A stretch of DNA of 12,139 nt from the NCBI GenBank assembly GCA_019057375.1, contig DXJF01000082.1:1-12139 (forward strand), written 5' to 3'. Both the position numbers and the translations under genes were made by a program. Source of the stretch: Candidatus Heimdallarchaeota archaeon. Lineage in GTDB: Archaea; Asgardarchaeota; Heimdallarchaeia; Heimdallarchaeales; Heimdallarchaeaceae. Below are positions 6,999-12,139 of this stretch, piece after piece; position 1 is the stretch's first letter, and each line of letters begins with the position of its first letter. The notes under the pieces were generated by a model. The model did no database searches and was not told where the DNA came from. It worked only from the letters and a program-made list of their open reading frames with translations.

Positions 6999-9629
6999 AT
7001 GCTTAAATCGGTCTTTACGAAGAAAACAGTAGTAATTATTAGTGTAGTGCTATTGATTTTGAGTTCTACTGTTACCATTCTTATGTTTACAGTATTTACG
7101 GAATATGAAACCCACAATTGTATAGAGATTACTTCCAATGATGATGTTTCCAATTATAACTTTCTTGGAGATGGTTCTGATGAGAACCCCTTTCTTATAG
7201 AAGGATTGAAGTTTAAGTCAGATGAAAATTTCGATATTAAAATTTACAATACAACGTATAGTTATATTGTCCGTAACTGCTATTTTACTAATGAAGAATT
7301 TTGTTGTTTACGTTTATGGGAACAAAATTCTGGTTCAATAATAGTTGAAGATAATATTTTTAAAATTGATTCAGAGAAAAACAAACATTCATTTGGAATG
7401 ACTGCACAGGATTCCTGCAATATTACTATCAGAAAAAACAAATTTCTGGGTTATTCAACCTCTTCTCAAATAGGTTTATACTTATGGAATTGTTCAGACA
7501 CACTGATTCAAGAAAATTATTTCGAATCAACTGATGTAAGTTTGATTTATGCTCAAAATTTAATGTTTAATAACAATAAGTTTGATGGAGAAGAGGATGC
7601 GTATTCAAGTTTATTTTCACATGATGTAACAAATATCACAATTTCCCATACAATTTCTAATAAAGCTTATTTTTCTCTTTCTCTAGGGGGTTGTAGGAGT
7701 ATCAAAATTCTAAAAAACTCTTTGAATACTGGATCGATAGTGATAAGAAATGATGTAATTGAAGACTATTTTGAACATCAAGTTGAAAATAATTTTATTG
7801 CTGAAAGAGAATATGGTTTTTTTGTTAATTTGACTGATCAAATAATATTTGAAGAGTATTCGATGATTAATCTAATTCAGAGTGATAATGTAACTATAAG
7901 TAATCAGAATCAATTTGATATATCTACGGGTATTCAATTAGAATCCTGCTCAAACTGCACAATTATGAATAATAGTGTAGCTGATTCTAGATCTGATAGT
8001 ATTTCTGTTTATAATTCAAATTATACTAGTATAATAGACAATCAGATTCTTAGGAGTGGATCTGAATCAATCTTCATTTCTTCTTCTCCAAATACAACAA
8101 TTATGGATTGCAGTATATGGGATAATTATGCTAATGGTGGGTATGAAGGGTATGTGTTTACAAATACAAGAAGCTTGAAAATTGTGGATTCTCCAGATTC
8201 TACAATCGAAAACAATAATATTACTTCAGAAAGATGTAGCTTAGAAATAAGAGAATCTGCATATTCTAGTATACTATCAAACCGATTTACTTCAATAGAT
8301 ATCGGAAATTTGATGAAAGATAAAGACATTTTTTACACTCTTAATATTGAAAATAATACAGTAAATGAGAAAAAATTAGGTATTTTTGTAAATCAAGTTA
8401 ATTTTAGTATATCCCCAGAATATAATCAACTTATTGTCATCAATTGTTCTGATATCTCTCTTGAAAATAGATTCTTTGACTTATTCAATTCTAATGCCAT
8501 AATGTTTTACAATAGCTCTAACATAAGTATAAGTTTTAGTTCATTTAACTCTATAGAGAATTCGCGTCACAGCGCACTTTCCTTTAGAAATTGTAGCAAT
8601 GTGCAATTTCATTATGTGCTTATAGATAATTCCTATACTGGGTTGTATTGTTGGAACTGCAGTAATTTTACTTTTTCCTTTTTGACTGTAAGAAACTCAG
8701 ACTCAGAAGGTGTTGATTGCTACAATGGAGTAAATTTCCTGTTTGAGTATTGTGTTTTTAAATCCTGTCGAGATGCTATTTTTCTTGTAGCATCTCAAAA
8801 TATACATATTTCAAGTATTTTATGTGAATCATCAACCATAAATATCATGAATTGCGATAATATCACAATTCAGAATAGTGAATTCAAGGAATGTGAAGGC
8901 TGTATAGGATTAGATGATAGTTCCAGGATAGATATTTTGAATAATAGTTTCGAATATGAACTATACGCAATTTCCTTCCATAACTATTACACAGTTACTT
9001 TATACCTCAACATCATTAATAATACTCTAACTGGGGGAATAATAGGAATAATACTCAATTCTATCACCAGTCCCACTCTTATTGAAAGAAATGCAATTTT
9101 TGGGAACAGTGAAGAAGAAATATGGGAATTTCATGGTGGAATATATGCTCATCATTGTGAATTTCTGACGATAACAAATAATTATATTGGATACAATTCA
9201 AGAGGTGTTTTTCTAGAATCCTCTTCCTATAGCACGATAACTTTCAACATTTTTGAGAAGAATATTAACTATGCAATTCGTTTAAGCAAATTTTCTCATG
9301 ATAATTTTATCTACCAGAACAATTTCTTTGAAAATCATATCGATGGTGAGTTCCAAGCATACGATGATGGAGAAGATAACGACTGGAACAGTATTGGTCT
9401 CATAGGTAATTACTGGAGTAACTGTTTAGATCAAGATAATTGTAGAATTGAAGGTGAAGGGTGGAGTTTTGATTATCACCCATTAGTTGAACCTGTGGAA
9501 ATTCCATACAATTCATCTTATTTCAATATTACAATATCAGATAGCTCTTACATTCCAGCTATTATAATCTCGATTTGTTCAATTTTTGCAATTAGAGTTT
9601 TAAAAAGACGAAAAAGACCCAGAAGATAA
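6999..9629 (+). CDS. Membrane-anchored right-handed parallel beta-helix (NosD/CASH-like) surface protein, about 876 aa
   Basis: Track ORF is 6906-9629. The ATG at 6999 is preferred because it gives a basic-then-hydrophobic leader (MLKSVFTKKTVVIISVVLLILSSTVTILMF). N-terminal motif GDGSDENPFLIEGL, about 22-23 aa rungs with I..N.I/F and NCSN turns, two ENN...GFFVN...Q/M.I.I..SD/N modules, closing AYDDG...GNYWS...DYHPL, then a TM helix and KRRKRPRR. Confidence 0.9.
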   Translation: MLKSVFTKKTVVIISVVLLILSSTVTILMFTVFTEYETHNCIEITSNDDVSNYNFLGDGSDENPFLIEGLKFKSDENFDIKIYNTTYSYIVRNCYFTNEEFCCLRLWEQNSGSIIVEDNIFKIDSEKNKHSFGMTAQDSCNITIRKNKFLGYSTSSQIGLYLWNCSDTLIQENYFESTDVSLIYAQNLMFNNNKFDGEEDAYSSLFSHDVTNITISHTISNKAYFSLSLGGCRSIKILKNSLNTGSIVIRNDVIEDYFEHQVENNFIAEREYGFFVNLTDQIIFEEYSMINLIQSDNVTISNQNQFDISTGIQLESCSNCTIMNNSVADSRSDSISVYNSNYTSIIDNQILRSGSESIFISSSPNTTIMDCSIWDNYANGGYEGYVFTNTRSLKIVDSPDSTIENNNITSERCSLEIRESAYSSILSNRFTSIDIGNLMKDKDIFYTLNIENNTVNEKKLGIFVNQVNFSISPEYNQLIVINCSDISLENRFFDLFNSNAIMFYNSSNISISFSSFNSIENSRHSALSFRNCSNVQFHYVLIDNSYTGLYCWNCSNFTFSFLTVRNSDSEGVDCYNGVNFLFEYCVFKSCRDAIFLVASQNIHISSILCESSTINIMNCDNITIQNSEFKECEGCIGLDDSSRIDILNNSFEYELYAISFHNYYTVTLYLNIINNTLTGGIIGIILNSITSPTLIERNAIFGNSEEEIWEFHGGIYAHHCEFLTITNNYIGYNSRGVFLESSSYSTITFNIFEKNINYAIRLSKFSHDNFIYQNNFFENHIDGEFQAYDDGEDNDWNSIGLIGNYWSNCLDQDNCRIEGEGWSFDYHPLVEPVEIPYNSSYFNITISDSSYIPAIIISICSIFAIRVLKRRKRPRR

Positions 9630-9640
9630 ACTATTCAATC

Positions 9641-11833
9641 TCAAGTACTAACTTCATTTCTTGTTTTTATTGCACTTCTATATATCTCTAATTCAGCAAA
9701 ACCTTTACTATCCTTTAACCAGTTTTCTAGCTTTTCTGCTTCTGTTTTTTTACCAATAAATAGATTCAATACTTCAAACATCTTCATGAATCGAAAAATA
9801 GTTTCTCTCCACTCACTTACAAAACTGTCGCTAACGTTATATTTTTTACAAATTCTTCTTATCTCAATTCCATTTACGATATCATGAGCTAACCGGATTG
9901 CTAGAAGAGAAGATAGTTCATTAGCTTTTATCTCTTGTTTGATTCGTTTATCCTTCGTTATGAACTGTTTGAGGTATTGAGTTATATTTAATTCTTTATT
10001 TACACCACAAAATTCTAGATAATCAATAAAATCGTAAGGATGAATATAATGTCTTGCAGCTAGTTGACCCATATAGGTTAAATTGACTCTATTTTCAGCT
10101 GATTTTACAATAAATCCTTCTTTGTATAAAAAGTCTAAAATTCCATAATTATTCAGCCATCTTTCTTGCCCCTCAGGATATTTTTCTAGCAGATATCTTT
10201 GATGCTTACATATGTAATTGGAATGCTTACTTTGACACGTACAGCTCCTTCTAGACGCTGATAAATAGATCTGATATAACTTTGATTGTTCTTTGATATT
10301 CGCAATAATTGCTGCTGTGTTTACACCCTCTATTGAGATTATCTCCATCTTTCTTTCTACTACATTTCTAGTCCTATCAAATCTTCTATAGAAATCAATT
10401 ATTTCATGTGTTTCGAGAGTCGATTCTGAAGATGAAAATAGTGCTTGAAACAGCTCAAAATCAACTAGATTTCTCATTACTTTTGATCTATTTTGATAGA
10501 ACCACAATGAATCTTCAATATTTTCGTGCAAATTAGTCAATTCACTGGAAAAAGTCCTATCTGAATTATAGATCCTACTCAAGTAAAACTGAACCAGAAA
10601 ATCATAATCTCCAAAGAAACTCTTTATGGGTTGGAATAGTGGAACAGCTGTTTTCAGTTCTGTTGCATTACTGAAAAACTTCTGTTCAGTTTGCTTCCTA
10701 AGGCGCTCACTACTAACCAAGACAACTCCTTCTCCTGAATCTTTCATCCCTAGTCTTCCTGCTCTCCCTAGAGTCTGAAAGACCAAATTGTTCTCTGTCT
10801 TTATCCTGTTATGTTTTATAGTAAAAACAGAAACATCAGCTGGTAAATTTACTCCAGCTGCAAGAGTGGAAGTGGAAACCAAAGTGTTCAGTTCTCCATT
10901 GAGAAACATGTTCTCTACAATTAACCGGACTAGATCTGATAAACCTGCGTGGTGATAAGCAACCCCTTTCTTAACCATCTCTTTCAAACTAGGAGGAAAA
11001 TATGTTTCTTGTAATATCTTCTTAGTCTTTGAATCTGTAACACTCTCAAGATTTTCAGATATCATCTTTTCAATCTCAAAATCCTGAATTACTTCTTTTT
11101 TTGAGACTATTTTTGTTGCCAATGATTCACTTTCAGACCGTGAGTGAGTAAAAATTAAAATCTGCTTTCCAAAGCTATCTGTTTTATCTAGATATTTGAG
11201 AGGATCCGCAAAAACCTCAATAGAGTAATCAATTGGAACAGGTCTTTTAGTTTCTATTATAGGATAAACATTTAACCAATCTGAAATCTCTAGAGGATTA
11301 GCTATTGAAGAAGAGAGTAAAATTAACTGAGCTTGCCTTTCATTTCTCTGCCATTCAAGTAATATTTCTTCTATTACTTTCCCTCTATCTGTTCCTAGAA
11401 AATGGAATTCATCGATGATTAATATTTTGAGATACTTGTGCAGAACTTCATATCGTTTTAAAAGTACTAAAAATTTCTCATAAGTACCAATAATGATATT
11501 TGCATCTCCTATCTCTTCCTCTTCAATTTCCACCCCTCCAACTGCAAGAAGAGTCTTTATCCCTCTCTGATCAAACAAAGACAAAGAGTGATTGAATTCT
11601 TGGACTGCTAAAGATTTGTAAGGAAGTATGAATCCAATTTTGAATTTTCTAGGAGAATTCAAAAATTTACCAAAGATGGACTGAAAGTATTCTGAAATAT
11701 ATTGCTCTGTGATGAAGGTTTTTCCTGCTGAACTAGGAGCAATAGCAAAGACGTTAGATTTTGTTTTGAACGCTTCTAAGCATCTTTTCTGAAAATCTGT
11801 ATACTTAACTGATTTTCCGTCAGAACTAAGCAT
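9641..11833 (-). CDS. Ski2-like (Hel308/Hjm-related) SF2 DExH helicase with a SWIM zinc finger insertion
   Basis: Q motif TDFQ, I APSSAGKT, Ia LPYKSLA, Ib TYEK, II DEFH, III LSSS, IV IFTHSR, GVAYHHAGL, V TSTLAAGVNLPA, VI QTLGRAGRLG. Winged-helix end GFI...LTYMGQLAARHYIHP. CTC-x8-CKH at aa 531-544. Confidence 0.92.
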   Translation of the reverse strand: MLSSDGKSVKYTDFQKRCLEAFKTKSNVFAIAPSSAGKTFITEQYISEYFQSIFGKFLNSPRKFKIGFILPYKSLAVQEFNHSLSLFDQRGIKTLLAVGGVEIEEEEIGDANIIIGTYEKFLVLLKRYEVLHKYLKILIIDEFHFLGTDRGKVIEEILLEWQRNERQAQLILLSSSIANPLEISDWLNVYPIIETKRPVPIDYSIEVFADPLKYLDKTDSFGKQILIFTHSRSESESLATKIVSKKEVIQDFEIEKMISENLESVTDSKTKKILQETYFPPSLKEMVKKGVAYHHAGLSDLVRLIVENMFLNGELNTLVSTSTLAAGVNLPADVSVFTIKHNRIKTENNLVFQTLGRAGRLGMKDSGEGVVLVSSERLRKQTEQKFFSNATELKTAVPLFQPIKSFFGDYDFLVQFYLSRIYNSDRTFSSELTNLHENIEDSLWFYQNRSKVMRNLVDFELFQALFSSSESTLETHEIIDFYRRFDRTRNVVERKMEIISIEGVNTAAIIANIKEQSKLYQIYLSASRRSCTCQSKHSNYICKHQRYLLEKYPEGQERWLNNYGILDFLYKEGFIVKSAENRVNLTYMGQLAARHYIHPYDFIDYLEFCGVNKELNITQYLKQFITKDKRIKQEIKANELSSLLAIRLAHDIVNGIEIRRICKKYNVSDSFVSEWRETIFRFMKMFEVLNLFIGKKTEAEKLENWLKDSKGFAELEIYRSAIKTRNEVST

Positions 11834-12139
11834 TGTTTATCCTTTTCCTAATGTTTTCGACTAGTTGACTAACAAGATTATCCTTGTTCTTCACGTTTGT
11901 ATCGAAATCGAAGGCATCAGTCTCTTCTTGAATACTTTCGATTATCTCTCTTCTGCTTTTCTGAGTGTAGGCTGATTTTGGCGATTCTTTCTTATTAAGA
12001 GCAGAATATTCCCATAACAGTTGTTGTGATTTTTCAAATGGTTCAGGATACCCAGTTGATTTGAAGAAGGAATTTATCTCATCTAAATACTGTTTTGACT
12101 CCATGTTTGGAAAGAACAATGTTTTTATTTGTAGTAGAG
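11826..12139 (-). CDS. C-terminal part of an unknown protein (start outside window), overlapping the helicase start
   Basis: The frame stays open from the track's TTG at 12119 to the window edge (LLQIKTLFFPN...). Its TAG at 11826-11828 overlaps the helicase ATG at 11831-11833 (8-bp overlap). Charged, helical-looking sequence with no recognised motif. Confidence 0.7.
   Translation of the reverse strand, partial: LLQIKTLFFPNMESKQYLDEINSFFKSTGYPEPFEKSQQLLWEYSALNKKESPKSAYTQKSRREIIESIQEETDAFDFDTNVKNKDNLVSQLVENIRKRINNA

Follow-up and report, generated by a model that had tools for sequence, protein, structure and literature searches.

The DNA considered here is a 12,139-nt stretch of contig DXJF01000082.1 (assembly GCA_019057375.1) from a Candidatus Heimdallarchaeota archaeon. 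This whole stretch is referred to as the window, and all positions are counted within it. The minus strand encodes a 730-amino-acid (aa) DExH helicase, which is a divergent paralog of archaeal Hel308/Hjm consisting of a RecA1-RecA2 motor, a winged-helix (WH) domain and a ratchet domain. The WH domain is split by an insert of about 110 residues, and several lines of evidence support the presence of a SWIM zinc finger within this insert. The gene is composed of the following parts (AF2, AlphaFold2 model; pLDDT, predicted local distance difference test score):

9641..11833, minus strand: gene for the SWIM-bearing Hel308-like DExH helicase, 730 aa plus stop (open reading frame (ORF) and translation; Pfam DEAD and Helicase_C)
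10679..11833, minus strand: RecA1 and RecA2 motor core, aa 1-385 (Pfam DEAD and Helicase_C; PDB sequence matches to Hel308/Hjm, Brr2, ASCC3 and Slh1 cover aa 20-390 only)
10490..10618, minus strand: N-terminal part of winged-helix domain 3, aa 406-448, ending in ..DSLWFYQN (AF2 helices; aligned to the WH domains of Hel308 and Slh1; hhalign to canonical Hel308)
10148..10489, minus strand: insert of about 114 aa with two helices and then the SWIM domain, aa 449-562 (left unmatched by canonical Hel308 in hhalign)
10154..10360, minus strand: SWIM core, aa 492-560 (AF2 model with pLDDT 94; Pfam SWIM on aa 520-545)
10202..10243, minus strand: CxC-x8-CxH signature CTCQSKHSNYICKH, aa 531-544 (re-translated; invariant in 63/63 family sequences)
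10241-10243, 10235-10237, 10208-10210 and 10202-10204, minus strand: codons for the zinc ligands C531, C533, C542 and H544, respectively
10034..10147, minus strand: C-terminal part of winged-helix domain 3, aa 563-600, with helix 565-571, wing hairpin and T..G...YIHP helix (AF2, VIA-align, hhalign)
9689..10033, minus strand: ratchet-like helical domain 4, aa 601-715 (profile of the C-terminal half of the family against PDB; Pfam Helicase_dom4_arc in relatives)

Pfam places DEAD at aa 12-178 and Helicase_C at aa 284-362. The protein has the core of a superfamily 2 DExH helicase with motifs I (APSSAGKT), Ia, II (DEFH), V (TSTLAAGVN) and VI (QTLGRAGR) intact, and motif III, confirmed by re-translation, reads SSS in this clade and not SAT (aa 174-176, window positions 11306-11314). 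The segment between motifs V and VI (around 10766-10831), which forms the strand-separating hairpin in Hel308, is six residues shorter than that of the canonical paralog. A winged-helix domain 3 and a ratchet domain 4 follow the motor. Domain 4 of Hel308 was matched in PDB chains by the profile of the family's C-terminal half (E = 4.8e-5) and Helicase_dom4_arc was found in 29 of 63 family members, while in the 730-aa helicase itself the Pfam signal for this domain is a weak match to POLQ_helical. The protein stops after domain 4: none of the HHH models of Pfam matched it, and 13 of 63 other family members do have a helix-hairpin-helix (HhH) domain 5. The helicase contains six cysteines, three of which reside inside the SWIM motif, and C18 is the sole N-terminal one.

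The interruption of the WH domain was confirmed by an AF2 model as well as by profile-profile alignment. The model was computed for aa 395-610 with a 63-row alignment and reached a mean pLDDT of 94 and a predicted template modelling score of 0.89. Three helices of the WH domain (aa 410-423, 432-440 and 443-452) are followed by two helices of the insert (459-466 and 475-487) and by the strands of the SWIM domain (496-502, 508-515, 518-525 and 529-531), the last of which carries the CxC at its end. CxH opens a helix spanning residues 543-551, a further helix occupies 553-559, and the final helix of the WH domain (565-571) together with the wing hairpin closes the model. The order typical of a SWIM fold, strands before CxC and a helix starting at CxH, is thus reproduced. 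When the family was aligned with canonical Hel308 by hhalign, the probability was 100 over the whole length with one gap, where about 115 family columns remained unpaired precisely between ..TF..Q and the L..L...GFI helix. VIA-align paired just the two flanks of the WH-SWIM model with WH domains, namely those of Hel308 and Slh1, leaving about half of the model unaligned. Foldseek returned no match in PDB for the WH-SWIM model at E <= 0.001, and searching the ESM Atlas with the insert yielded no usable match. In a full-length AF2 model based on 15 close orthologs, pLDDT dropped below 50 from residue 400, and where the insert sits with respect to motor and DNA path cannot be read from it. A preliminary description of the window had placed DSLWFYQ at aa 441-447, the CxC-CxH motif at 10202-10243 and an L..L...GFI...T..G...YIHP block at aa 565-599, with about 110 extra residues lying inside the WH domain. 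Minus-strand translation of 9641-11833 returned all three motifs in these places, and the unpaired columns agree with the length given for the insert.

The same description had recognized the module as a SWIM zinc finger. This assignment is supported by the signature, by Pfam and reciprocal profile matches, by the succession of strands, knuckle and helix in the AF2 model and by the conservation of the ligands. The helicase has the spacing C531-x-C533-x8-C542-x-H544; within the family the central spacer has a median length of 13 residues and spans 6 to 35, and n usually ranges from 6 to 16 in the CxC-x(n)-CxH motif of SWIM domains (PMC5727457). With Pfam SWIM (PF04434, gathering cut-off 19.6 bits), the helicase scored 14.4-16.0 bits (E 0.0086-0.028) and remained under the cut-off, the best value being obtained when the segment was scanned alone (match at aa 520-545); the model was not reported on the helicase in a scan of all ORFs of the genome. 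At the aligned position of a Baldrarchaeial relative, P0068, the cut-off was exceeded (27.7 bits, residues 501-537, between Helicase_C and Helicase_dom4_arc). In fact, P0068 presents the architecture DEAD, Helicase_C, SWIM, Helicase_dom4_arc and HHH_5 with every single domain above its Pfam cut-off. Across diverse family members, 12 out of 16 matched Pfam SWIM at E <= 1 (best E 1.1e-5), and six of the 63 family members did so at E <= 0.01. When, conversely, a hidden Markov model of the family's SWIM core was run against the 23,998 six-frame ORFs of the genome, the helicase came first and the best non-self match was C39:15087-15533 (E 0.016), a small ORF likewise picked by Pfam SWIM, which makes the profile match reciprocal. 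The profile of the C-terminal half also matched P0093, a stand-alone Pfam SWIM protein of 103 aa (28.3 bits), at its SWIM positions.

The four ligands, three cysteines and one histidine, are invariant in 15 orthologs, account for four of the six invariant columns in 16 sequences of 17-72% identity and for four of the five invariant columns within aa 395-610 (216 columns) in 63 family members that share 14-75% identity. They are the most conserved residues of the entire C-terminal half. Columns of the insert are occupied in 0.82-0.99 of the 63 members, and orthologs agree best in the SWIM core, with 75.9% identity compared with 61-70% for the RecA domains. A chance motif or a remnant of a mobile element was also considered and is ruled out by the phylum-wide conservation in frame.

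As far as the searched databases show, SWIM-bearing Hel308 helicases are a family of Asgard archaea. Only 87 clusters were retrieved at E <= 1e-3 when the profile of the C-terminal half was compared with 1.84 billion protein representatives. Nearly all full-length matches (650-990 aa) carry CxC-x(6-37)-CxH at a distance of 150-190 residues past motif VI; two canonical Hel308 proteins among the matches were borderline only and do not have the motif. Ten clusters were looked up by name and belong to Lokiarchaeota/Promethearchaeota, Jordarchaeum, Heimdall-, Hod- and Baldrarchaeia, with the exception of one member on a 2.9-kb contig labelled Patescibacteria. Matches to the family turned up in 165 of 400 Asgard genomes. 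Broken down by genome family, the counts are 93/135 for f14 (probably Lokiarchaeia), 11/12 for f6, 6/6 for f23, 10/14 for f27, 21/30 for the window's own family, 0/12 for f2 and 1/22 for f5.

The SWIM helicase differs from the canonical Hel308 of its own genome, a protein of 749 aa without SWIM and with an uninterrupted WH domain, to which it is 25% identical. Where a canonical Hel308 is present, the SWIM form is a paralog distinct from it. Solved Hel308 structures were matched with 478-505 bits by the canonical protein versus 103-121 bits by the SWIM helicase. The NCBIfam Hel308 models (NF040935, PRK02362, PRK01172 and PRK00254) recognize just the motor of the latter, with 153-158 bits against cut-offs of 887-1200, and it is not a Hel308 equivalog by these models. 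In a quick maximum-likelihood tree, calculated without an outgroup and without eukaryotic sequences, a single branch (SH-aLRT 100) parts 42 SWIM-bearing from 14 canonical sequences. Such a tree fits a single gain of the SWIM insert but does not prove it. The possibility that the protein is nearer to Brr2, ASCC3 or Slh1 than to Hel308 was rejected, as the lower E-values of those proteins sum two cassettes of about 100 bits each, whereas single Hel308 chains reach 115-121 bits. In two f14 genomes that are 98-99% complete, no canonical Hel308 was found at E <= 1e-60. Since the SWIM form of f14 in addition retains the HhH domain 5, which the clade of the window does not have, it may be the sole Hel308-type helicase there. 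The canonical gene of the window's own genome is located directly downstream of a gene (L021:2-1429, contig C126) whose translation reads as MCM-like and possibly intein-interrupted. In several Asgard genomes (G012:C1, G022:C35, G015:C2) canonical Hel308 is encoded in frames of 913-1265 aa and matches in two parts, which suggests that these split genes contain inteins.

The joining of SWIM to a superfamily 2 motor is a known theme. In SWIM-SNF2 ATPases, SWIM is a terminal domain of a Snf2-type ATPase, unlike the helicase described here, where it is an insertion in the WH domain of an enzyme of Ski2/Hel308 type. Bacterial SWIM-SNF2 ATPases and stand-alone archaeal SWIM proteins were reportedly described by Makarova, Aravind and Koonin in 2002. 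Stand-alone SWIM ORFs that match the SWIM profile of the family are also present in the window's own genome. Archaeal Hel308/Hjm (PDB 2p6r, 2va8, 2zj2) does not have the 110-aa SWIM insert in the WH domain, and the clade of the window in turn does not have HhH domain 5. Like the SWIM helicase, HELQ and the helicase domain of POLQ belong to the Hel308 family and act in recombination and repair, and the binding of HELQ to BCDX2 parallels the linkage between the genes for helicase and RadA paralogs (PMC13623763). They differ from the window's helicase in having no SWIM insert, and POLQ is closer to the canonical Hel308 of the genome (177 bits) than to the SWIM helicase (70 bits). Shu2/SWS1 (ZSWIM7) of the Shu complex shares the CxC-x(n)-CxH SWIM finger and the association with paralogs of the Rad51/RadA family (PMC5727457), which is here seen as genes only. 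However, Shu2/SWS1 are small stand-alone proteins, while SWIM is internal to a 730-aa helicase in our case; n is 8 in the helicase as opposed to 59 in Shu2, and the family profile revealed no sequence similarity past the signature, such that the helicase does not belong to Shu2/SWS1.

Two further systems resemble the helicase in part. The Ski2-like helicases Mtr4/Ski2 likewise carry an accessory module in their WH domain, the arch with its KOW domain (PMC10946056). They are RNA helicases of eukaryotes, though, and the fold of their module is a different one; PF13234 matched neither the helicase nor any of its 63 relatives. ASH-Ski2, an archaeal Ski2-like RNA helicase reported from 38 of 42 Asgard genomes (PMC10946056), also has an accessory domain of zinc-finger type. 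Its finger is N-terminal, is formed by four cysteines and is not of the SWIM type, whereas the window's helicase has no N-terminal cysteine cluster and aligns with Hel308.

The genes surrounding the helicase gene in the window are the following:

5471..6670, minus strand: RadA-family paralog, 399 aa (Pfam Rad51, 2e-53)
6906-9629, plus strand: NosD-like right-handed beta-helix protein, 907 aa, between the genes for the helicase and the RadA paralog
11826..12139, minus strand: 3' end of the upstream gene, which is truncated at the contig boundary; its stop overlaps the ATG of the helicase gene (ATGCTTAG)

In six Heimdallarchaeial loci (L002, L003, L006, L010, L013 and L016) the RadA paralog is encoded on the same strand 60-200 bp downstream of the helicase, and the next gene is that for a giant surface protein with Ig repeats. 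A RadA-family gene resides within about 2 kb of the helicase gene in seven of seven f6 loci, and short RadB-like genes share a gene string with it in f23 and f31. In total, RadA-family genes occur near the helicase in at least four Asgard families, and not in Lokiarchaeial loci. The loci are partly non-independent, and it is nevertheless unlikely that the proximity arose by chance because the window's own genome contains just four RadA-family genes in 3.5 Mb. The beta-helix gene is complete only in the window and its closest relatives (L001 and L009), left a short remnant match in L004 and L019 and is not found in the other loci. This pattern suggests that the gene entered the string recently.

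What might the finger do? We tentatively favour the idea that the SWIM module docks RecA-family partners and couples the helicase to them, because the genes are linked, because the SWIM domain of Shu2 contacts the Rad51 paralog Shu1 (PMC5727457) and because HELQ interacts with RAD51 and with the RAD51-paralog complex BCDX2 (PMC13623763). The four ligands would hold one Zn2+, by which the module would stay folded and project rigidly from the WH domain, a domain that serves in substrate recognition in Hel308 (PMC13623763). There, the module would add a docking surface for RecA-family partners, i.e., the adjacent RadA or RadB-type paralogs, on recombination or fork intermediates. The result would be a dedicated recombination-mediator helicase beside the housekeeping Hel308. 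Binding of a partner or of DNA by the finger is something that we infer, and several observations weigh against the proposed docking. No Shu2 or other SWIM-containing PDB chain was found up to E 10 with the profile of the family's C-terminal half against PDB sequences, and the VIA-align list was filled by winged-helix matches. Judging from its sequence, the SSS version of motif III and the shortened segment between motifs V and VI may have altered unwinding activity, which is not assured. In the window itself, the opposite-strand gene for the beta-helix surface protein parts the helicase gene from that of the RadA paralog. Finally, a RadA-family gene was not found within about 8 kb in ten loci of f14, the largest family, and in two f27 loci, yet the SWIM ligands are kept there, and therefore the role of the finger cannot depend on an adjacent paralog gene. 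When the RadA paralog and Zn were combined with WH-SWIM (aa 395-610) in a complex prediction, the score was 0.00, i.e., no answer, which bears neither for nor against binding.

The strict retention of the finger in f14 loci without a RadA neighbour would suit another role: The insert could be a nucleic-acid-binding element that widens the DNA-recognition surface of the WH domain and lets this paralog, without any protein partner, select a particular branched structure, be it a fork, a D-loop or a Holliday junction, or clamp duplex DNA. The WH domain of Hel308 is required for DNA binding and unwinding (PMC13623763, citing Northall 2017), SWIM was first predicted to bind DNA or proteins (PMC5727457) and the segment comprising knuckle and helix is mildly basic in 76% of the members, with a median net charge of +2. 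This charge signal is weak, however, and the strand region is near neutral; residues contacting DNA cannot be mapped on the full-length model with its pLDDT below 50 past residue 400, and the recurrent RadA-family neighbours fit a protein partner equally well. We rank DNA recognition nearly as likely as partner docking and regard it, taken by itself, as rather doubtful. It is improbable that the zinc site is purely structural and the insert a stabilizing staple or spacer of a fast-evolving WH domain that has no binding function of its own. Such a role would agree with a family-wide conservation limited to the four ligands and a few hydrophobic positions and with a loop between CxC and CxH that varies from 6 to 35 residues, such that the sequence by itself reveals no conserved patch on the surface. 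It is hard to square, though, with a SWIM core that is better conserved among orthologs than the RecA domains (see above) and with the retention of the full 110-residue module in 63 of 63 members across the phylum. Least likely is a function as an RNA helicase in RNA surveillance or ribosome quality control, with a WH insert that acts like the arch of Mtr4/Ski2 and recruits adaptors or RNA substrates. The best whole-sequence E-values in PDB do belong to ASCC3, Slh1 and Brr2, and DSHCT matched two family members. Per cassette, the former reach about 100 bits, which is no better than the 115-121 bits of Hjm/Hel308. Moreover, the family aligns end to end with Hel308, with the Hel308 domain 4 model matching 29/63 and HhH domain 5 13/63 members, the neighbouring genes encode recombinase paralogs rather than RNA-processing proteins, and the arch domain PF13234 was not detected by Pfam in the helicase or its 63 relatives.

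Partner docking, if it holds, would lend itself to a more far-reaching scenario, in which the SWIM-bearing Hel308 together with the adjacent RadA/RadB-type paralogs is an Asgard recombination-mediator machine and the antecedent of the eukaryotic Shu2/SWS1 and HELQ-BCDX2 partnerships, the stand-alone SWIM mediator having been released from a helicase-embedded module. We consider this quite unlikely; the comparison of the family profile with PDB sequences turned up nothing that would tie the insert specifically to eukaryotic Shu2/SWS1.

We did not find a WH-embedded SWIM domain in a Hel308-like helicase described in the literature searched, in line with the preliminary description, which knew of no characterized Ski2-like helicase of such a layout. 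Full-text searches that paired SWIM with Hel308 or Asgard helicases returned nothing relevant. The word SWIM is absent from a 2024 survey of archaeal Ski2-like helicases that included 75 Asgard genomes, and a 2026 review on Hel308/HELQ presents only the standard five-domain layout of Hel308 in its passages on Asgard, paralogs, the winged helix and BCDX2. According to the 2024 survey, the arch domain of Mtr4/Ski2 sits inserted in the WH domain (PMC10946056). With an arch in Mtr4/Ski2 and SWIM in the Asgard helicase, the WH domain of Ski2-like helicases emerges as a place that accessory modules have occupied repeatedly. How Hel308/HELQ helicases and RAD51 paralogs regulate recombination is poorly understood in both cases, and a partnership between them is known from animals only. 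Here, an Asgard-wide Hel308 paralog bears the type of finger that Shu2/SWS1 uses on Rad51 paralogs, and its gene repeatedly has those of RadA paralogs as neighbours. It provides a simple prokaryotic model in which to study how a helicase motor couples to recombinase paralogs and whether such coupling predates eukaryotes.

Some further observations concern the genes next to that of the SWIM helicase. In two other Asgard families (L067:6295-8392 and L070:10558-12653), a short RadB-like gene (225-254 aa) and, immediately after it, a gene for a protein of 451-471 aa are located near the helicase gene. The 451-aa and 471-aa proteins had no Pfam match and their pairwise similarity was not significant (E 0.011). 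The gene upstream of the helicase, truncated in the window, encodes a protein of about 1039 aa in L002 (L002:2856-5975), for which no Pfam match, no Walker A motif and nothing in a PDB sequence search was found; it shares no significant similarity with the 668-aa product of the upstream gene in L067. Its feature neighbours in the ESM Atlas were ATPases of HerA/VirB4/DUF87 type with scores of 0.89-0.90, which provides a lead only; the upstream gene product may be an inactive HerA/VirB4-like protein. In L002, the SWIM helicase is gene 6 in a tight same-strand string of at least eight genes (L002:23-14119). The products are, in this order, proteins of 209 aa, 218 aa, 348 aa (with a weak AAA_25 RecA-like match), 158 aa and 1039 aa, then the SWIM helicase and the RadA paralog, and last the giant surface protein with Ig repeats (more than 1567 aa). 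Such an arrangement suggests one operon linking recombination proteins with a surface protein.

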